Shown piece by piece: positions 7,313 through 41,609 of a stretch of 43,477 nt of DNA. A program made the translations under genes and the position numbers. Position 1 is the first letter of the stretch. Each line of letters starts with the position of its first letter. This stretch comes from Methanomassiliicoccaceae archaeon UBA537 (GTDB taxonomy: Archaea > Thermoplasmatota > Thermoplasmata > Methanomassiliicoccales > Methanomethylophilaceae), in assembly GCA_002504495.1 (NCBI GenBank), contig DATC01000053.1, positions 1-43,477 on the forward strand, in the 5' to 3' direction. The notes below the pieces were generated by a model. The model was not told where the DNA came from, did no database searches, and saw only the letters and a list, made by a program, of their open reading frames with translations.

Positions 7313-8424
7313 CCGATATACCGCTCAACGAGCAGCTCCACGGCTTCATAGACGACCTGGAGCGCACCCTCGACCATCACGGGGAGCCGATCGACTGCGA
7401 TGCTGTGGTCCTCTGCGGCGTCGGCGGATCCGCGGTCAGCGGGGACGTCGCGGCCGATTGCTATCGCATGATCTCTCCCGTGCCCCTCTACACCGTCAAG
7501 AATCCCGACATCCCCAACTGGGCCGGATCGCGCACACTCGCCATAGTGTCCAGCTATTCCGGCAACACCGCGGAGACGCTCGAGATGTACAGGCAGGCCA
7601 AGGAGAAGGGCTGCACCGTCGTAGCTCTGACATCCGGAGGCAGGCTGAAGGATCTCGCCACCCTCAACGGGGACAGGGTCATGCTCCTGCCGCCCTCCAT
7701 GCAGCCGAGGCATGCGATCGGATACATGATCGGCTACACCCTGGCGATCATCCGCGATGCGGGAGCTTCCGATATATCGGAGGAGATACGCGCGTTCCTG
7801 CCGGACCTCCGCGAGTGGAGGGACAGGGAGGCCATTCCAGATGGATGCCTCGCCAGAAGGATCGCGGACTCGTTCAAGGGCAAGGTCCCCGTCGTGTGCT
7901 CCGGACCCAGCATGAGGTCCGTCGCGTTCAGATGGAAGACGCAGATAAACGAGAACTCCAAGCGCGTCGCATTCTTCGATGCCGTACCGGAGTTCGACTC
8001 CTGCGACCTGGCCGCATGGGCCTCCTCGCATCGCGACAACTACGTCCTCATCCTGCTGATGGGATGCGACGAAGGCAGGGATCTGATGGAGATGTTCGAC
8101 AAGGAGCTGGAATCGGCCGGATCGTCCCATCTGGCGGTGAGGCTCGGAGGTTCGTCGCCTCTCGAGGACCTCTTCCGTGCGATAATCCTGGGGGACTACG
8201 TCTCGATGTACATGGCCCTCTCCAGAGGAATAGATCCGGCGGAGGTCAGGCCGGTCATGCAGATGAAGGCCAAGCTCTCGCAGCGCTGGCCGATCGACGG
8301 TCCGACATCCCGGCGAGGGTCTCCTCGAACTCCTTCGCGAATCTCTTCGAGCGCTCCTCCGCCTTCTCAGGATCCGAGGATTCGGAGTATATCCTGTATT
8401 TCGGCTCCGTTCCGGAGGGCCTGA
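7309..8424 (+). CDS. bifunctional phosphoglucose/phosphomannose isomerase family protein (lacks catalytic His motif)
   Basis: ATG 7309 overlaps the upstream TGA (ATGA). Motifs GVGGSAVSG, SSYSGNTAET, TSGG, RWKTQINENSK and DPAEVRPV...K. Homology ends near 8290; first in-frame CGA is at 8314. Confidence 0.85.
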   Translation: MTDIPLNEQLHGFIDDLERTLDHHGEPIDCDAVVLCGVGGSAVSGDVAADCYRMISPVPLYTVKNPDIPNWAGSRTLAIVSSYSGNTAETLEMYRQAKEKGCTVVALTSGGRLKDLATLNGDRVMLLPPSMQPRHAIGYMIGYTLAIIRDAGASDISEEIRAFLPDLREWRDREAIPDGCLARRIADSFKGKVPVVCSGPSMRSVAFRWKTQINENSKRVAFFDAVPEFDSCDLAAWASSHRDNYVLILLMGCDEGRDLMEMFDKELESAGSSHLAVRLGGSSPLEDLFRAIILGDYVSMYMALSRGIDPAEVRPVMQMKAKLSQRWPIDGPTSRRGSPRTPSRISSSAPPPSQDPRIRSISCISAPFRRA

Positions 8425-20915: not shown

Positions 20916-20967
20916 GAAGGAAATGAGAACGCGAACGGGCCATGTGTCCGCGAAATTGGGTGTTGTG

Positions 20968-21987
20968 ATGGATGGGATACATTACAGGGCCAGGGCTCCG
21001 TTGAGGATCGGGCTGGCAGGAGGAGGTACGGACGTGGAGCCGTACGCCTCCAAGAAGGGCGGTGCTGTTTTCAACACGACTATCAACCGTTATGCGTACT
21101 GCACGATAACGCCCACCTGCGATCATTCCATGTCCGTCATCTCCACAGATTACGGAAAGTACAGCGCGGACCTTCAGGACGGCCCGCTCCCCCTCGACGG
21201 GAATATGGATCTGATCAAGGCGGTCACCAACCATTTCGGCGTCACCGACGGATTCAAGATGTTCCTGCAGTCGGAGGCTCCTCCGGGGTCGGGGCTCGGA
21301 GGCTCCTCCACCGTGATAGTGTCGATCATCGCCGCGATGTGCGAGTGGCTCGACATCAGGATGTCGGGGTACGAGATGGCCAAGCTCGCGTACAAGCTCG
21401 AGAGGGAGGATATAGGCCTCAAGGGCGGGAAGCAGGACCAGTACGCCGCGGTGTTCGGAGGGTTCAATCTGATGAAGTTCGGCGCCGACAGGGTGGATGT
21501 CAACCGTGTGAGGATAGACCAGGATGCCATAAACGAGCTCCAGTACTGCTCTCTCCTGTGCTACACCGGCACGGCGCGCGAATCCGCGAAGATAATCGAA
21601 TCCCAGGTCAAGAAATTCAACGAGGGGCAGAATGAGATCGCTCTGGACAGGACCAAGGCGCTCGCGGAATCGATGGCCGTCGCCATGGAGAAGGGCGAGA
21701 TCCACAGGGTCGGAGAGATCCTCGACGAGGCGTGGAGCTACAAGAAGCAGTTCTCCGACAAGGTAAGCAATCCCGGCATAGACGCGATGTACAACGCAGC
21801 CATCGAGGCCGGAGCCATCGGAGGCAAGGTCTCCGGAGCCGGAGGTGGCGGATTCATGTACTTCATATGCCGTTACGATCGCAAGTACAACGTCGCCAAG
21901 GTTCTGGGCCAGATGGGTGCCAAGGTCACCGACTTCATGTTCGAACCGCAGGGCGTCGTTTCATGGAGATATCCAAATGACCGATGA
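20968..21987 (+). CDS. hddA: D-glycero-alpha-D-manno-heptose-7-phosphate kinase (GHMP family)
   Basis: RAPLRIGLAGGGTD, PPGSGLGGSS, GGKQDQYAA.FGG and GGKVSGAGGGG motifs; ends CGA-TGA. Confidence 0.88.
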   Translation: MDGIHYRARAPLRIGLAGGGTDVEPYASKKGGAVFNTTINRYAYCTITPTCDHSMSVISTDYGKYSADLQDGPLPLDGNMDLIKAVTNHFGVTDGFKMFLQSEAPPGSGLGGSSTVIVSIIAAMCEWLDIRMSGYEMAKLAYKLEREDIGLKGGKQDQYAAVFGGFNLMKFGADRVDVNRVRIDQDAINELQYCSLLCYTGTARESAKIIESQVKKFNEGQNEIALDRTKALAESMAVAMEKGEIHRVGEILDEAWSYKKQFSDKVSNPGIDAMYNAAIEAGAIGGKVSGAGGGGFMYFICRYDRKYNVAKVLGQMGAKVTDFMFEPQGVVSWRYPNDR

Positions 21988-23020
21988 GATCAGAGCCGAG
22001 CTCGCCAAAGCCGTGGATGCCATCTCGAATATAGATCCGTCCCAGATCAGGGCGGCCGCCGACGTCATCCGCGACGCGTTCAGAAGAGGCAACCAGGTCA
22101 TGTTCTGCGGGAACGGAGGCTCTTCGGCCGATGCGCAGCATATCGCGGCCGAATTCTCCGGAAGATTCAAGATGGAGAGGCCCGCGCTTCCCGGCGTGTG
22201 CCTGTCCAACATCGCCCCTGTGACCGCCATAGGCAACGACTACTCCTACGACCTGGTCTTCAAGAGGCAGGTCGAGGGTCTATGCAGAGAGGGGGACGTC
22301 CTCGTCGGAATGTCCACATCCGGCAATTCCAAGAACGTCGTCCTCGCCATGGAGGAGGCCAAGTCCAAGGGCGGGCTGACCGTGAGCTTCACCGGCGACG
22401 GAGGCGTGATGAGGGACATGGCCGACTGCGCCGTGATCATCCCCTCCCACGACACCGCCCACATCCAGGAGGGCTACCTCTGCGCCTGCCACATCATCGC
22501 AGGCATCGTCGAGAGGGAGCTCTTCGGCAGCCGAGCCGTCTTCATAGACCGCGACGACACCATCGTCGAGGACGTTCCGTACTGCGACGATCCGGACAAG
22601 CTCAGAATGTTCCCGGACGTTCCGGCCGCCATAGGCAGGCTGAACGCCGCAGGGTATCTGGTCATACTGATCACGAACCAGTCGGGCATCCATCGCGGAT
22701 ACTTCGACGAGGAGACCCTCGCCAGGATACACGGGCGCCTGAAGGACATGGTATCGGCCGGAGGCGGCCGCATAGACGACATCTTCTACTGTCCCCACAC
22801 TCCCGATGAGCATTGCTCGTGCAGGAAGCCGGAGACCGGGATGGGACTGGCGGCGATCGAGAAGCATCACATCGATCCCTCGAGGTCCTGGATGGTCGGC
22901 GATAAGGACAAGGACGTGGAGTTCGGCAGAAGGCTCGGCTGCAGGACCGTCAAGGTCGGAGACGGGGTATCCTTCTCCGATGCGGTCGACGAGATCCTCT
23001 CCGCCGACGGCCGTCTCTGA
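21977..23020 (+). CDS. gmhA: fused sedoheptulose-7-P isomerase (GmhA) and heptose-1,7-bisphosphate phosphatase (GmhB)
   Basis: GmhA part: CGNGGSSADAQH, AIGNDY, STSGNS, IQE. GmhB part: FIDRDDT, TNQSGI, CPH...CSCRKP, GDKDKD. CGA at the domain junction (22532). Confidence 0.9.
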   Translation: MTDEIRAELAKAVDAISNIDPSQIRAAADVIRDAFRRGNQVMFCGNGGSSADAQHIAAEFSGRFKMERPALPGVCLSNIAPVTAIGNDYSYDLVFKRQVEGLCREGDVLVGMSTSGNSKNVVLAMEEAKSKGGLTVSFTGDGGVMRDMADCAVIIPSHDTAHIQEGYLCACHIIAGIVERELFGSRAVFIDRDDTIVEDVPYCDDPDKLRMFPDVPAAIGRLNAAGYLVILITNQSGIHRGYFDEETLARIHGRLKDMVSAGGGRIDDIFYCPHTPDEHCSCRKPETGMGLAAIEKHHIDPSRSWMVGDKDKDVEFGRRLGCRTVKVGDGVSFSDAVDEILSADGRL

Positions 23021-31282: not shown

Positions 31283-31925
31283 CGAGGCCGAATGCATCGG
31301 CTATCTTGAGGACGCCGGATGCAAGCGCAGGGTCGTCATCCACTGCTGCACGGTCGAGGCCGTCGCCAAGGAGATGATCTCCCGCATAGACGGCGTGGAC
31401 CGCGATCTGGTCTTGGCGGGAGCGCTGCTCCACGACATAGGCAGGTCGAAGGACCATTCCATCATGCACGCGTACGTGGGGTCGCAGATCGCCGCGTCGT
31501 ACGGGCTCCCGGTCGCTCTCCAGGATATAATCCGCAAGCATACCGGCGCAGGGCTCGATGCGGAGGATGTGGAGGAGATGGGCCTGCCTCCGGCAGACTA
31601 CATGCCGAGCACACTGGAGGAGAAGATCGTGGCCCATGCGGACAACATGGTCAGCGACAACCGCGTCGTGGATCACATGCATTCCGTGGAGAAGCTCTTC
31701 AACAAGGGGGCCGTCCGCGGAGCCGAACGCGTGGAGGATCTGCATCGCGAGCTCTCCCTCCTCTACGGAGAGGATCTGGACTGCATCCCCGGGAAGATCG
31801 GGGAGTATCCCGAGCTGGAGCTCGCCAAACGCATGGGGATCCTGCGATCCCCGATTTCTTCACAGGACCGTCGGGCTTTTCGTCCGCGGGCCTGTTCGTC
31901 ATTTTTCTCCGAATCCTGCCTTTGA
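31263..31925 (+). CDS. HD/HDIG metal-dependent phosphohydrolase (TIGR00295-like)
   Basis: TTG start after GAGGGGG; H...V, LLHDIGR, H, HTGAG and EEKIVAHADN motifs; likely true end at CGA 31845. Confidence 0.85.
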   Translation: MSNTIPDEAECIGYLEDAGCKRRVVIHCCTVEAVAKEMISRIDGVDRDLVLAGALLHDIGRSKDHSIMHAYVGSQIAASYGLPVALQDIIRKHTGAGLDAEDVEEMGLPPADYMPSTLEEKIVAHADNMVSDNRVVDHMHSVEKLFNKGAVRGAERVEDLHRELSLLYGEDLDCIPGKIGEYPELELAKRMGILRSPISSQDRRAFRPRACSSFFSESCL

Positions 31926-37601: not shown

Positions 37602-37852
37602 TGGCAGAGGACTATTCCATAAAGAAGGACGCGAGGTTCGTCGTCGTGTACAGGATCACGGATTCCAGGGACGGTTCCGTGGAGGGGACGTACAAGGGCA
37701 TGGCCGCCATGGGCGCCGAGACGGCGTTCGTCTTCGAGACGTCCGACGGCATCGTGTTCCTCAACGCGTCGTCGATCGTCTCGATGAAGCAGACCGCGGC
37801 CGCTCCGGAAGAGCCGAAGAAGCCCAAGGACGAGAGCGCTCTGTATGGCTGA
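37598..37852 (+). CDS. small beta-rich hypothetical protein (Sm/LSm-like) ending in LYG
   Basis: 84 aa, coupled to both neighbours; G-x-x-x-G and F-L-N-x-S-S-I pattern; flexible tail ending L-Y-G. Confidence 0.65.
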   Translation: MMAEDYSIKKDARFVVVYRITDSRDGSVEGTYKGMAAMGAETAFVFETSDGIVFLNASSIVSMKQTAAAPEEPKKPKDESALYG

Positions 37853-39380
37853 GCCTCTGGACCTGCTCTCCGATGAGCTCATCGAAGCGGTCAGGACCGG
37901 GAAGGTCGACGACCGCGATTCCTTCCAGAACCTCAAGCTCAAGCTCTGCAAGAAGCACGGTCTGTCCGGCGTCCCGCCGAACTCCGATGTTCTGGCCCGC
38001 ACCCCGGAGGACCTGAGGCCTCTCCTCCTTCCGTTCCTCATCAAGAAGCCCTCGCGCACCGTCAGCGGAGTGGCCGCGGTGGCGGTAATGACGTCGCCCC
38101 ACGACTGCCCCCACGGAAGATGCGCGTACTGTCCCGGCGGAGTCTCCAACGGATCGGCGCAGTCGTACACGGGCAAGGAGCCGGCGGCGAGGAGGGCCGC
38201 GCGCGACGCCTTCGATCCATGGCTGCAGGTGACCGACCGCGTCCGCCAGCTGGAGGAGATCGGCCACAGCGCAGGGAAGGTGGATCTCATAATCATGGGC
38301 GGGACCTTCACAAGCAGGGATCCGGAGTATCAGGAGTGGTTCGTCAAGCGCTGCTTCGACGCCCTCAACGGCCGCGACTCCGATACGCTGGAGGAGGCGC
38401 AGAGGATCAACGAGACGGCATCCCGCAGATGCGTCGGGATGACCGTGGAGACCCGTCCGGACGTGTTCACGGACGAGCAGATCGAGCGGGCCATGCGCCT
38501 GGGGGCCACCCGCGTGGAGCTCGGAGTGCAGATCCTCGACGACGATATCCTGGCCGGCATGGAGCGGGGGCACGGCACCGCGGAGGTCCGCGACTGCACC
38601 GCGAGATGCAGGAGCCACGGTCTGAAGGTCTGCTACCACATCATGCCCGGGCTGCCCGGGTCCGATCCGGACCATGACCTCGAGTGCTTCAGGAAGGTGT
38701 TCGACGATCCCGCGTACCGTCCGGATATGCTGAAGTTCTACACCCTGCTGGTCGTCGCAGGGACCCGCGTCCACGAGATGTGGGAGCGCGGAGAGTATGT
38801 TCCGTACGACGAGGCGACGGCGACGGAGCTCCTGGCGAGGATGAAGGCCATCGTCCCCGACTACGTCCGCATACAGAGGGTCCAGAGGGACATCCCCGCC
38901 ACGGAGATCGTCGCAGGGATAACCAAGAGCAACATCCGCCAACCGGTCCTTGAGCTGATGAGGATGCGCGGGACTCCGTGCAGATGCATCCGCTGCAGGG
39001 AGGTGGGGCGTTCGGAGGACATCGTGGACCTCGATGCGGCCGAGCTCTGCGACGAGGTCTACGAGGCCAGCGGGGGGACGGAGTACTTCATATCGTTCAC
39101 GAGCGGGGACCGCATAGTCGGATACGTCCGCCTCAGGCTGGATTCAGGCGACGCCGCCACCATACGCGAGCTGAAGGTGTTCGGGCATCCGGCTGCGATA
39201 GGGGAGGACGGCGACATACAGCACCGCGGATTCGGTCGGAGGCTCGTCTCCGAGGCCGAGCGCATAGCACGCGAGTCGGGCAGGAGGCGCATAAGGGTCA
39301 CCAGCGGCGTAGGTGTCCGCGGATACTACCGCTCCCTAGGATTCTCCGAGGATCTCCCGTACATGGCCAAGGATCTGCGA
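37845..39380 (+). CDS. elp3: tRNA uridine(34) acetyltransferase Elp3 (radical SAM + GNAT)
   Basis: CPHGRCAYCPGG, QSYTG.EP, MGGTF, ETRPD, QRDIP, CIRCREV, RELKV, QHRGFG, SGVGVR.YY and PYMAKDL. End placed at CGA 39378-39380; the standard-code ORF runs on to TAG 40085. Confidence 0.95.
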
Positions 39381-41609
39381 TCGCCCGTAGAACGGGTTGT
39401 CGTTCCAAGGGGTCCTTCTTCTTCTGAGCGAGCGCCCCATGGCCTCGTAGGCCTCGGCGGATTCCCTGGAGACCGACGGGGCTATCTCCTCCAGCGCGGA
39501 ATCGAAGTGCTTCTGGAGCACCCCGTTCGCGCCCCTGTCCTCGCGATAGGCGCAGAGCGCCGCCTCCCTGCAGAGCGCCGCGAGGTCCGCTCCGGTGTAC
39601 CCGTCGGTAGAGGCGGCAACGGAATCCAGGTCCACGCCGTTCAGCGGCATCCTCGACGTGTGTATCCTGAGGATCGAGCGTCTGGATTCCAGGTCGGGCA
39701 TGCCGACGAGGACCAGGCCGTCGAACCTTCCGGGTCTCAGAAGGGCCGGATCCACGGCGTCGGGACGGTTGGTCGCGCCTATGACGGTCACGCGGCGCGG
39801 ATCGCCCACGCCGTCCATCTCCGTGAGCAACTGGGCCACGATCCTCTCCGACCCCTCGGAGCCGCCGGATCCTCTGGCGGGGGCGATGGAGTCCAGCTCG
39901 TCGAAGAACACGATGCACGGGGACATCTGCTTGGCCTTGCGGAATATCCTCCGGACCGTCTTCTCGGATTCGCCGAACCATTTGCTGGCGATCTCCGGTC
40001 CGCTGACCGATATGAAGTTGCATCCCGATTCGTTGGCCACGGCCTTGGCGATCAGCGTCTTCCCGGTGCCCGGGGGGCCGTATAGGAGGATCCCCCTCCC
40101 CGGCTCGATGCCCAGCCTCTCGCAGGCGTCTTCTCCGTCGACGGACATCACGCATTCGTCTATGCGGCGTCTGACGTCGTCCAATCCGCCGATGTCGCTC
40201 CATGACACCTTGGGGATCTCGACCAGCACCTCCCTCATGCCGCTGGGCTCGACCTCCGAGAGCGCGGCGGAGAAGTCGTCCATGGACACGCGCAGGGATT
40301 CGAGCATCTCCGATGGGATGGCCTTGTCCAGGTCCATCTCCTCGATGCGCGTGCTGACGCAGTGCAGAGCGGCCTCCCTGCATAGAGCGGCCAGGTCCGC
40401 GCCCGCGAAGCCGTTGGTGACGGCCGCGAGCCTCTCCGCTGTGACATCGGCAGTCAGCGGCATGTCCCTCATGTGCACGGACAGGATCTGCGCCCTGCCG
40501 TCGATCCCGGGGATGCCGATCTCCATCTCCCTGTCGAATCTCCCGGGGCGTCTGAGGGCGGGATCTATCGACCCCTCGCGGTTGGTGGCTCCTATGACCA
40601 CGACGCCTCCTCTTCCTCCGAGGCCGTCCATCAGGGCAAGGAGCTGGGCGACCACGCGCCTCTCCACTTCTCCCGAAGCGTCCTCCCTGTCGGGGGCTAT
40701 CGAATCGATCTCGTCGAGGAATATGATGCTCGGGGCCTTATCCTCGGCCTTCCTGAAGATCTCCCTGAGGCGCTCCTCGCTCTGTCCGTAGTACTTGCCC
40801 ATTATCTCGGGGCCGCGGACGGAGAAGAGGGTCGCGCCCGATTCGTTGGCTATCGCCTCTGCAAGGAGCGTCTTCCCGGTGCCGGGGGGACCGTAGAGCA
40901 GGACACCCTTGGGTGCCTCGATGCCCAGTCTCTCGAACAGCTCGGGGTGCTTCAGAGGCAGTTCGATCATCTCGCGCATGCGTCCGAGCTCCTCGTCCAG
41001 TCCGCCGACGTCGTCGTATGTGATGCGGCGCCCTCCCTTCTTCTCGCCGCAGGCCTCCTGCTCTTCCGACGGTTGGACATCGGCGACGTCCTTCACTGAT
41101 ACGACGGTGTCCGGACGCACGATGACCGGTCCTTCGGGGACTGTGGAGGAGACGTAGAACGTGGAGCGGTTGCCTGTAAGGGCGATATTGGGTACTATGA
41201 TGTCTGTGCCGGCCACCAGCGGGCGGTTGAGCAGTCCTTTGAGGAACAGGCGTTCGATGTCGTCCTCGAATCTGATCCTCTTGCCGTCGGGTATGTTCGG
41301 TGCCAGGACGATCTTCTCGGCGGGAGGGGGCTCGCATCTGCTAACCTCCACGTTCTCGTCGACGCTGACGCCCGCGCCGGTGCGGGTGAGGCCGTCGATG
41401 AAGATAAGTCCGCGCCCCTCGTCCTCCGGGTCGCACTTGAAGACCTTGGCTACGACGGAGCGCTTCCCGGTTATCGATACGGTGTCGCCGAGCTCCGCAC
41501 CGAGTGCCCTGCGGGACGCGGAGTCCATTCTGGCGCGCCCGTATCCAGCTTCGTTCTGCGATTTCGCTCTCGCGACCTTGAGGGTGATCGAATCCGGCAT
41601 ATCGTGCAT
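39336..41609 (-). CDS. cdc48: CDC48/VAT family AAA+ ATPase
   Basis: N domain plus two AAA modules (GPPGTGKT twice, DEID/DELD, RPGRFD twice); start ATG 41609 or 41600; natural end PFYG followed by CGA at 39383-39381. Confidence 0.95.
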   Translation of the reverse strand: MHDMPDSITLKVARAKSQNEAGYGRARMDSASRRALGAELGDTVSITGKRSVVAKVFKCDPEDEGRGLIFIDGLTRTGAGVSVDENVEVSRCEPPPAEKIVLAPNIPDGKRIRFEDDIERLFLKGLLNRPLVAGTDIIVPNIALTGNRSTFYVSSTVPEGPVIVRPDTVVSVKDVADVQPSEEQEACGEKKGGRRITYDDVGGLDEELGRMREMIELPLKHPELFERLGIEAPKGVLLYGPPGTGKTLLAEAIANESGATLFSVRGPEIMGKYYGQSEERLREIFRKAEDKAPSIIFLDEIDSIAPDREDASGEVERRVVAQLLALMDGLGGRGGVVVIGATNREGSIDPALRRPGRFDREMEIGIPGIDGRAQILSVHMRDMPLTADVTAERLAAVTNGFAGADLAALCREAALHCVSTRIEEMDLDKAIPSEMLESLRVSMDDFSAALSEVEPSGMREVLVEIPKVSWSDIGGLDDVRRRIDECVMSVDGEDACERLGIEPGRGILLYGPPGTGKTLIAKAVANESGCNFISVSGPEIASKWFGESEKTVRRIFRKAKQMSPCIVFFDELDSIAPARGSGGSEGSERIVAQLLTEMDGVGDPRRVTVIGATNRPDAVDPALLRPGRFDGLVLVGMPDLESRRSILRIHTSRMPLNGVDLDSVAASTDGYTGADLAALCREAALCAYREDRGANGVLQKHFDSALEEIAPSVSRESAEAYEAMGRSLRRRRTPWNDNPFYGRSQILGHVREILGES

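Follow-up and report, generated by a model that had tools for sequence, protein, structure and literature searches.

Apparent use of CGA as a translation stop at the elp3-cdc48 junction and at other gene ends of a Methanomethylophilaceae archaeon

Introduction

Two genes, elp3 and cdc48, meet tail to tail on a 43,477-nucleotide stretch of DNA from Methanomassiliicoccaceae archaeon UBA537 (contig DATC01000053.1; the whole stretch is called the window below), and each has the arginine codon CGA where its stop codon would be expected. The question raised by this locus is whether both genes have lost their stops at adjacent codons, or whether CGA itself ends translation in this organism. The sequence comparisons described below indicate that CGA is probably a functional translation end in this genome, alongside TGA and TAA, and that, to varying degrees across the genus, it has probably ceased to be an ordinary arginine codon.

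The genome to which the window belongs (G000; 1.6 Mb, 81% complete) was compared with 40 related genomes, comprising 24 from the same genus (labelled g1) and 16 outgroups from other families of the order. To predict the genes of G000, CGA was added to the three standard stops, and stop-to-stop frames that reached 120 codons were kept if their codon log-odds score exceeded 0.3. The orthology tests relied on alignments of G000 proteins to non-redundant sequence from each relative, about 5-80 kb apiece. In all, gene ends from 40 genomes were compared, with orthologous ends sought within 3 codons of the G000 end. Runs of N total 7885 bases in G000 and interrupt several genes.

The elp3-cdc48 junction

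The sequence at 39363-39395 reads ATG GCC AAG GAT CTG CGA TCG CCC GTA GAA CGG, and the adjoining CGA codons of the two strands together form CGATCG at 39378-39383 (Table 1). Under translation table 11, the Elp3 frame would extend from 37845 to 40085 and encode 746 residues, and the Cdc48 frame would extend from 41777 to 39336 and encode 813 residues, counted from the first TTG. The 15-residue tail that read-through would add to Cdc48 is RSQILGHVREILGES. Both read-through frames terminate at TAG.

Table 1. Features of the window discussed in the text
Feature	Position	Strand	Remarks
Convergent pair, CGA on both strands	8294..8316	both	second such pair; 23-nt overlap
GlmM end, CGA	8294-8296	-	convergent with phosphoglucose/mannose isomerase
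Phosphoglucose/mannose isomerase end, CGA	8314-8316	+	convergent with GlmM
HddA (heptose-7-phosphate kinase) end, CGA	21982..21984	+	TGA immediately next
In-frame CGA at GmhA/GmhB domain junction	22532..22534	+	candidate read-through site
Gene-end CGA	31845..31847	+	orthologue comparison, 12 relatives
Spurious Cdc48 read-through	39336..39380	-	15 codons and TAG, antisense to Elp3 end
Elp3 coding sequence	37845..39377	+	511 codons, C-terminus ...LPYMAKDL; TIGR01211 match
CGA at Elp3 stop position	39378..39380	+	directly after M-A-K-D-L
CGA at Cdc48 stop position	39381..39383	-	after CCG TTC TAC GGG (P-F-Y-G); adjoins Elp3 CGA
Spurious Elp3 read-through	39381..40085	+	235 codons antisense to cdc48, TAG end
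Cdc48/VAT-type AAA ATPase coding sequence	39384..41609	-	742 codons, ends ...NDNPFYG (HbYX-like tail)

The distribution of CGA within the two long frames is uneven. In the Elp3 frame, CGA is absent from codons 1-511, occurs at codon 512 and then recurs seven times in the 235-codon tail (codons 529, 544, 604, 611, 669, 722 and 728). In the Cdc48 frame, it is found at codons 9, 13, 17, 35, 43, 55 and 799 and is absent from codons 56-798. Six of these codons lie within the 55 codons upstream of the likely Cdc48 start, and the start of the 742-codon gene was taken as the first ATG past the upstream CGA.

Family profiles end at the same places. The Elp3 model TIGR01211 covers residues 12-511 (profile positions 2-522 of 522, E 2.3e-195) and ends one codon before the CGA, and a profile search of the Elp3 frame past residue 511 gave no family match. 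Similarly, the CDC48 model TIGR01243 covers residues 64-786 of the long frame (profile positions 2-731 of 733, 879 bits). In all six CGA-ended genes of the window with full-length models, namely Elp3, Cdc48, phosphoglucose/mannose isomerase, GlmM, HddA and GmhA, the profile stops at or shortly before the CGA.

A preliminary description of this locus had reported the tail-to-tail CGA pair and its codons on both strands, a gain of about 235 residues by Elp3 antisense to cdc48, the burial of the Cdc48 FYG tail under 15 residues in the standard code, TAG at the end of both extended frames and no other CGA in either gene. All of this was reproduced, the difference between the 746-residue frame and the 511-residue protein being 235 and the translation of the Cdc48 extension giving 15 added codons.

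The HbYX motif is a proteasome-docking motif that consists of a hydrophobic residue, a tyrosine and any residue at a free C-terminus. If CGA terminates, Cdc48 is predicted to end in F-Y-G, with a penultimate tyrosine preceded by a hydrophobic residue, as HbYX requires. If this need for a free hydrophobic-Tyr-X C-terminus holds here, a single added arginine would already put the tyrosine out of register, which argues against translation of CGA at the Cdc48 site.

The junction in related genomes

Elp3 was located in G000 and in 39 of the 40 relatives. An alignment of the junction across relatives, which the preliminary description had proposed as a check, revealed interchange among TGATCA, TAATCA, CGATCA (G014 and G023) and CGATCG (G000, G010 and G002). 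At the Elp3 stop position, 21 same-genus loci carry TGA (10), TAA (two) or CGA (six), or a standard stop 1-3 codons later (three). Eight outgroup loci end either at TAG (four) or after 1-6 extra residues and a stop (four). No in-frame CGA is present in Elp3 in any of 22 genus genomes.

The Cdc48 tail is PFYG in 16 of 17 same-genus relatives and PLYR in the other, and the next codon is TGA in 15 and CGA in two. In two outgroups the tail is GAYR, followed by TAA or TGA. The HbYX ending suggested in the preliminary description is matched by a penultimate-tyrosine tail, with a stop or CGA next, in all 17 genus relatives and both outgroups. Among the 17 same-genus tails compared, the 15-codon extension is absent from all relatives with TGA at that position. 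Of the 21 Elp3 loci from the genus, 18 have a standard stop or CGA at the same codon, as do all 17 Cdc48 tails, and by this comparison the match at orthologous codons exceeds chance.

Database proteins gave a similar picture. Among the 120 closest homologues of Elp3, the C-terminal motif could be located in 113; 70 of these end there, 34 have 1-10 more residues and nine have more than 10. In all nine of the latter, which are metagenome proteins, arginine directly follows PYMAK.., and these over-long homologues are 532-823 residues in length. If CGA is a stop, Elp3 is predicted to terminate at ...PYMAKDL (511 residues) and Cdc48 at a free ...PFYG tail, and CGATCG is to be read as the TGATCA tail-to-tail stop pair of sister species after T-to-C changes on both strands.

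Behaviour of CGA across the genome

Among 1190 predicted genes of G000, 697 end in TGA, 416 in CGA, 44 in TAA and 33 in TAG. CGA is the commonest CGN trinucleotide in this genome (91,030 occurrences on both strands), and its frequency is 34.7 per 1000 off-frame vs 0 in frame. The sequence downstream of CGA resembles that downstream of TGA: the mean in-frame coding score is -0.48 after CGA, -0.49 after TGA and +0.30 after TAG, and of the downstream segments of at least 15 codons, 5.5%, 9.8% and 42% respectively look coding. The coding signal past TAG fits the reading of TAG as pyrrolysine, and serves as an internal control for the downstream test. TAG-ended frames in G000, of which 39550-40791 (+) in the window is an example, often remain coding past the TAG.

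CGA ends (median 21, mean 78 codons) and TGA ends (median 28 codons) show no difference in how far away the next standard stop lies (p = 0.21), which argues that no selection keeps such extensions short. Only six of 413 CGA-ended genes examined are followed in frame by a coding-like segment that reaches 40 codons. Five of these six segments have a start codon 8-23 codons past the CGA and are compatible with adjacent genes that share a frame. By these measures, CGA appears to mark the natural ends of about one-third of the genes of G000.

CGA and TGA ends nevertheless differ in their use and surroundings. The CGA share of gene ends is 42-46% in the lower three codon-bias quintiles and 15% in the top quintile. 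A standard stop follows immediately after 45 of 416 CGA ends vs 31 of 697 TGA ends (p = 7e-5). T occupies position +4 after 59% of CGA ends (56% without abutting pairs) vs 34% (33%) of TGA ends, and after 28% of all CGAN in the genome. The under-use in the top quintile, the tandem stops and the +4 T preference are signs that CGA may be weaker as a stop than TGA. CGA ends also favour G or C at +5 and avoid A at -1, which TGA ends do not, and this context preference could reflect termination context, mutation bias or overlapping starts.

Tail-to-tail stops with no gap are the commonest convergent arrangement in G000, with 14 pairs vs at most five at any other spacing. Seven of these pairs are CGA with CGA, seven are mixed and none is TGA with TGA, for which about 5.5 would be expected (binomial p = 0.0014).

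Orthologous gene ends and variation between species

In aligned genes, in-frame CGA accounts for 39 of 139,984 codons in the genus (0.03%) vs 126 of 27,025 in the outgroups (0.47%). The outgroup codons mostly align with R or K. On inspection, nearly all of those in the genus were either ahead of the gene start, within the stop-to-stop frame, or among the final few residues. By eye, the only genus CGA within a conserved internal block encodes the arginine of the gmhB DRD motif in G011 and G020.

Genus orthologues of CGA-ended G000 genes end in TGA (100), CGA (24), TAA (five) or TAG (one). The corresponding outgroup ends are TGA (13), TAG (11) and TAA (five), with no CGA; a standard stop lies within 3 codons in 29 of 29. 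Conversely, CGA is present in 16 of 221 genus orthologues of TGA-ended G000 genes. Thus, the interchange of CGA and TGA runs in both directions. The proposal in the preliminary description that CGA terminates at natural gene ends agrees with this interchange, with the loss of coding signal after CGA and with the avoidance of CGA in gene bodies.

The use of CGA ends ranges from about 0 to 44% of checked ends between species. CGA ends were counted in G010 (11/25), G018 (4/15), G001 (4/12), G003 (3/5), G023 (3/7), G002 and G014 (3/16 each), G004 (2/28) and G006 (2/31). No CGA end was detected in G013 (0/28), G015 (0/24), G020 and G022 (0/19 each), or G024 and G007 (0/16 each). In a FastTree phylogeny of Elp3 and aRF1, the CGA-rich species form basal branches and a clade of G018, G010 and G000, and G013 is nested among CGA-rich species. 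GC content alone was rejected as the driver, since G013, G006 and G004 have 59-61% GC yet few CGA stops.

The predicted gmhA-gmhB fusion

One CGA in the window appears to be read through. An in-frame CGA lies at the boundary between the GmhA and GmhB domains, where the GmhA models run out at residues 223-230 and those of GmhB begin at 230-231. The gmhB part is intact, with a coding score of 0.63, and the next ATG, GTG or TTG in G000 lies 24 codons past the junction CGA, beyond the DxD motif. With an intact coding gmhB and no start codon after the CGA, gmhB would have to be translated through it. Among the 413 CGA-ended genes examined, this is the sole such case.

At the junction, 11 genus genomes (G000 included) have CGA, two AGA, one AAG and two TAG, and of the outgroups three have AAA and one CCA. 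Four genus genomes encode gmhB separately, with an ATG, GTG or TTG start of its own. The arrangement in G000 combines a stop-like codon with two conserved parts in one frame, no restart and retention across species, the features of a predicted read-through site. The occurrence of two stop-like codons, CGA and TAG, at one domain boundary suggests regulated read-through. Together with the DRD arginine of G011 and G020, the junction indicates that CGA is still readable as arginine at some sites or in some species, and CGA is probably not a pure stop across the genus. The predicted fusion belongs to a heptose pathway cluster at 20923-23020, in which the HddA gene is followed by gmhA-gmhB.

The transfer RNA for CGA

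Loss of the cognate transfer RNA (tRNA), tRNA-Arg(UCG), was considered and rejected, since G000 and all but one of its 24 same-genus relatives (23) have the gene. With the search pattern used, it was not found in G006 (93% complete). In all 24 genus genomes that have it, the anticodon arm is abnormal. The 31-39 pair is A.A in eight genomes, C.A in 10 and U.C in one, and the remaining five have the loop CC-UCG-AC (C33, A37) together with a 27-43 mismatch. By contrast with this genus-wide state, tRNA-Arg(UCG) is canonical in five of five outgroups, where the stem has its regular 5 bp and the loop reads CU-UCG-RA. In the genus, the identical non-standard pairs of tRNA-Arg(UCG) are flagged by the Rfam tRNA model.

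Of the 38 tRNAs predicted in G000, tRNA-Arg(UCG) is the only one with a 31-39 mismatch. The only other with a non-standard anticodon-stem pair is tRNA-Arg(GCG) on contig 38, which has a 27-43 U.U mismatch. When species are grouped by tRNA state, CGA accounts for 25 of 72 checked ends with A.A, 11 of 153 with C.A, 0 of 28 with U.C and 3 of 76 with the C33 type, a correlation only, among species that are related. A loss of tRNA-Arg(CCG) was likewise rejected for G008, G015, G004 and G013, in each of which a canonical gene was found; in G000 (81% complete), tRNA-Arg(CCG) was not found with the pattern used.

The release factor aRF1

A single aRF1 passes the family cut-off in every genome, with the gene divided between two contigs in G012, G023 and G040. 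A second aRF1 paralogue was not found in any, the further matches in each genome being weak and Pelota-like. The NIKS and YxCxxxF motifs are unchanged, and all aligned aRF1s read Y-R-C. Around NIKS, however, the genus and the outgroups differ: 14 of 14 aligned genus proteins read E-Q-S-Q-A-S-NIKS-K-T-T-M, whereas 15 outgroup proteins read E-[Y/F/L]-S-[Q/E]-S-[S/T/Q]-NIKS-x-x-T-R. The genus-specific changes are Q after E55, where outgroups have Y, F or L, and M in place of the arginine four residues after NIKS. This arginine is present in the 15 outgroups and in PDB chains 4af1, 3agk and 1dt9. Among 116 database homologues of aRF1 in which the motif was found, Q is present in 113 and M in 115.

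No residue in the first 200 alignment columns of aRF1 separates CGA-rich from CGA-poor species. The aRF1 of G018 (locus L063) reads RGRSTELIS where all other aligned aRF1s read RGRGTELIS, in a loop that adjoins the codon-reading surface.

Release factors of this family are able to act at CGA. In the part of the yeast study available, eRF1/eRF3 compete with tRNA-Arg at CGA and release the peptide, an efficient tRNA(UCG) lowers this release, and termination at a single gene-end CGA is detectable (PMC7379694). The UGA-biased substitutions R, F and Y at L123, the x of Y-x-C, are described there as enhancing CGA release by yeast eRF1, and the A. pernix aRF1 is noted to carry arginine at the equivalent position (PMC7379694).

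Other CGA-ended genes in the window

A second convergent pair with CGA on both strands is formed by the phosphoglucose/mannose isomerase and GlmM genes, whose family profiles end 11-13 residues short of the respective CGA. HddA orthologues end in TGA in both G018 and G013 and in CGA in G010. For the gene that ends at 31845..31847, a standard stop lies within 4 codons in 10 of 12 orthologues (exactly there in seven), and CGA is found exactly there in two.

Interpretation and alternatives

A mechanism in which the single aRF1 of these organisms reads CGA as a near-cognate of UGA is favoured, with somewhat better than even confidence in the aRF1-based scheme as a whole. The arginine at the Y-x-C position would be the equivalent of the CGA-enhancing L123R substitution of yeast, and the genus-specific Q and M may also contribute. 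Owing to the abnormal anticodon arm of tRNA-Arg(UCG) (31-39 mismatch, or C33 and A37), which would weaken this tRNA, aRF1 would usually outcompete it. The retained tRNA would insert arginine at low or context-dependent frequency, and this residual insertion would explain the conserved CGA of gmhA-gmhB, where read-through is predicted. No shift of frame could uncover a hidden stop, since the -1 codon is xCG and the +1 codon GAx, neither of which is ever a stop.

These elements may be combined into a single account. CGA would be a genuine stop recognized by a variant aRF1, the first sense-to-stop reassignment in a cellular genome, superimposed on the use of TAG for pyrrolysine; the retained tRNA-Arg(UCG) without its 31-39 pair would give a programmed GmhA-GmhB fusion, and the state of that pair would set the use of CGA stops in each species. 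The full combination is held only tentatively, at slightly under an even chance.

Several observations weigh against an aRF1-based CGA stop. The tRNA-Arg(UCG) gene is present, and in the forms with a 31-39 mismatch, compensatory changes preserve four of the five anticodon-stem pairs; for this reason the tRNA looks functional and should read CGA. Furthermore, 4-bp anticodon stems have been reported, in the accessible part of the source, to broaden near-cognate reading with no loss of function (PMC13092985). The core motifs of aRF1 are intact, and the identical aRF1 variant is carried by species with no CGA stop among 16-28 checked ends; one of these, G013, is nested among CGA-rich species. In G000 itself, an N-terminal stretch of aRF1 that includes the GT(S/E) loop is masked as N (contig C30). 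At the gmhA-gmhB junction, CGA is kept in 11 genus genomes ahead of an intact gmhB without a following start codon, and G011 and G020 use CGA for the conserved arginine of the DRD motif. Finally, the gene set of G000 was defined with CGA as a stop, and an internal sense CGA is detectable in it only through downstream coding signal.

An alternative is that CGA is effectively unassigned. In this scenario tRNA-Arg(UCG) would decode CGA poorly, and the stalled ribosomes would be rescued by Pelota/ABCE1 and peptidyl-tRNA hydrolase rather than released by aRF1. The genus-wide anomaly of the tRNA, the unchanged NIKS and YxCxxxF motifs and the Pelota-like second match in every genome are all in keeping with such rescue, and the low CGA use in the most codon-biased genes (15%) and the tandem stops fit an inefficient process. 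However, about 35-44% of the genes of G000 and G010 would need rescue in every round of synthesis, nothing would account for the aRF1 changes that the genus shows at conserved positions, and in the yeast work, as far as its available part extends, an eRF1-type factor itself can release at CGA (PMC7379694). Stalling and rescue is considered unlikely.

C-to-U editing of mRNA, which would turn CGA into UGA under an otherwise standard code, predicts the same genomic signature of in-frame avoidance and interchange with TGA, and the +4 T preference (56-59% vs 33-34% after TGA) could represent the recognition context of an enzyme. Editing is frame-blind, however, and with CGA at 34.7 per 1000 off-frame many codons would suffer damage from an editor that was not highly specific for over 400 sites. 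It would also make the tRNA and aRF1 changes a coincidence, and no mRNA C-to-U editing is known in archaea. This explanation is very improbable.

Slightly more improbable still is that CGA is an ordinary, rare arginine codon, so that stops were lost and the proteins are truly extended. The tRNA-Arg(UCG) gene is present, and CGA must be sense at gmhA-gmhB and as the DRD arginine of G011 and G020. Against this, 416 of 1190 proteins would carry extensions (median 21, mean 78 codons) with no sign of selection for short tails, Elp3 would gain its 235 residues antisense to cdc48, and Cdc48 would have its penultimate-tyrosine motif buried. The coding signal stops at CGA, all 29 outgroup orthologues have their stop there, and the absence of CGA from gene bodies, yet its abundance exactly at native ends, would be left unexplained.

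A sequencing or assembly artefact, in which T is miscalled as C in TGATCA-like contexts, has a negligible chance of being correct: T is indeed favoured after CGA ends and CGATCG is palindromic, but CGA occurs at orthologous stops in many independently assembled genomes and in nine independent database proteins, TGATC-context stops are also present in the window, and miscalls cannot cause the avoidance of CGA in gene bodies.

Significance

If CGA termination by aRF1 is correct, a sense codon can be captured by a release factor in a free-living prokaryote, and stages of that capture, from about 0 to 44% of checked ends, are visible within one genus. The ambiguous-intermediate and codon-capture models would then be testable on living relatives, some of them cultured. 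In practical terms, gene callers that use table 11 would over-extend about one-third of the proteins in such genomes. The aRF1 residues and the anticodon-stem pair of the tRNA would provide handles for the engineering of termination, in a lineage whose pyrrolysine system is already widely used in genetic code expansion.

Comparison with known systems

Sense-to-stop codes are known from organelles (NCBI tables 2, 22 and 23): AGA and AGG in vertebrate mitochondria, TCA in Scenedesmus and TTA in Thraustochytrium mitochondria. The AGA and AGG ends of human mitochondrial genes are explained by a -1 shift onto UAG. As in these codes, a standard sense codon has here been purged from within genes and turns up where they end. 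Unlike them, the present case concerns 416 genes of a cellular 1.6 Mb genome that keeps the cognate tRNA, and a stop by frameshifting is impossible. The occurrence of CGA at native gene ends in this lineage points to a natural sense-to-stop code change in a free-living organism.

In Blastocrithidia and ciliates, a tRNA with a short 4-bp anticodon stem occurs together with a mutated eRF1. One tRNA that lacks its 31-39 pair, and a release factor with substitutions near its codon-reading motifs, resemble these systems and the 4-bp-stem tRNAs of bacteria described in the part of the report available (PMC13092985). The systems differ in the part played by the tRNA. There, the short stem lets a tRNA read a stop as sense; in the present genus it belongs to the tRNA cognate to a codon that would have turned into a stop, on whose decoding the short stem could act in either direction.

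Among archaea, no report of CGA termination was found in the literature on Methanomassiliicoccales or Methanomethylophilaceae (full texts without supplements). A 'code 34', in which TAG is read as pyrrolysine, has been reported for Methanomethylophilus and others, according to the accessible part of the preprint (bioRxiv 10.1101/2024.09.30.615893). It concerns the same archaeal group, in which termination signals had already been remodelled, but the change is from stop to sense at TAG there and from sense to stop at CGA here, and CGA is not mentioned in the main text of that work. A possible CGA stop has been raised for two Njordarchaeales assemblies, in which CGG encodes tryptophan and, in the available part of the preprint, CGA is described as lacking from recognisable domains and tRNA(UCG) as not found (bioRxiv 10.64898/2026.04.02.715157). 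That part gives no gene-end evidence, whereas here gene ends were compared across 40 genomes of a different lineage. Moreover, CGG is reassigned there; here it is rare but has a canonical tRNA-Arg(CCG) in relatives, and tRNA(UCG) is kept in altered form.

A functional parallel is found in yeast eRF1/eRF3 (Wada and Ito 2018, PMC7379694). As far as the available part of that article describes, CGA release in yeast is the work of an eRF1/aRF1-family factor set against tRNA-Arg, as is proposed here, and arginine at Y-x-C, an enhancing substitution there, is the native residue here. In yeast, however, release at CGA is a weak side reaction observed on reporters, whereas in the archaeon described here it would normally end about one-third of the genes.

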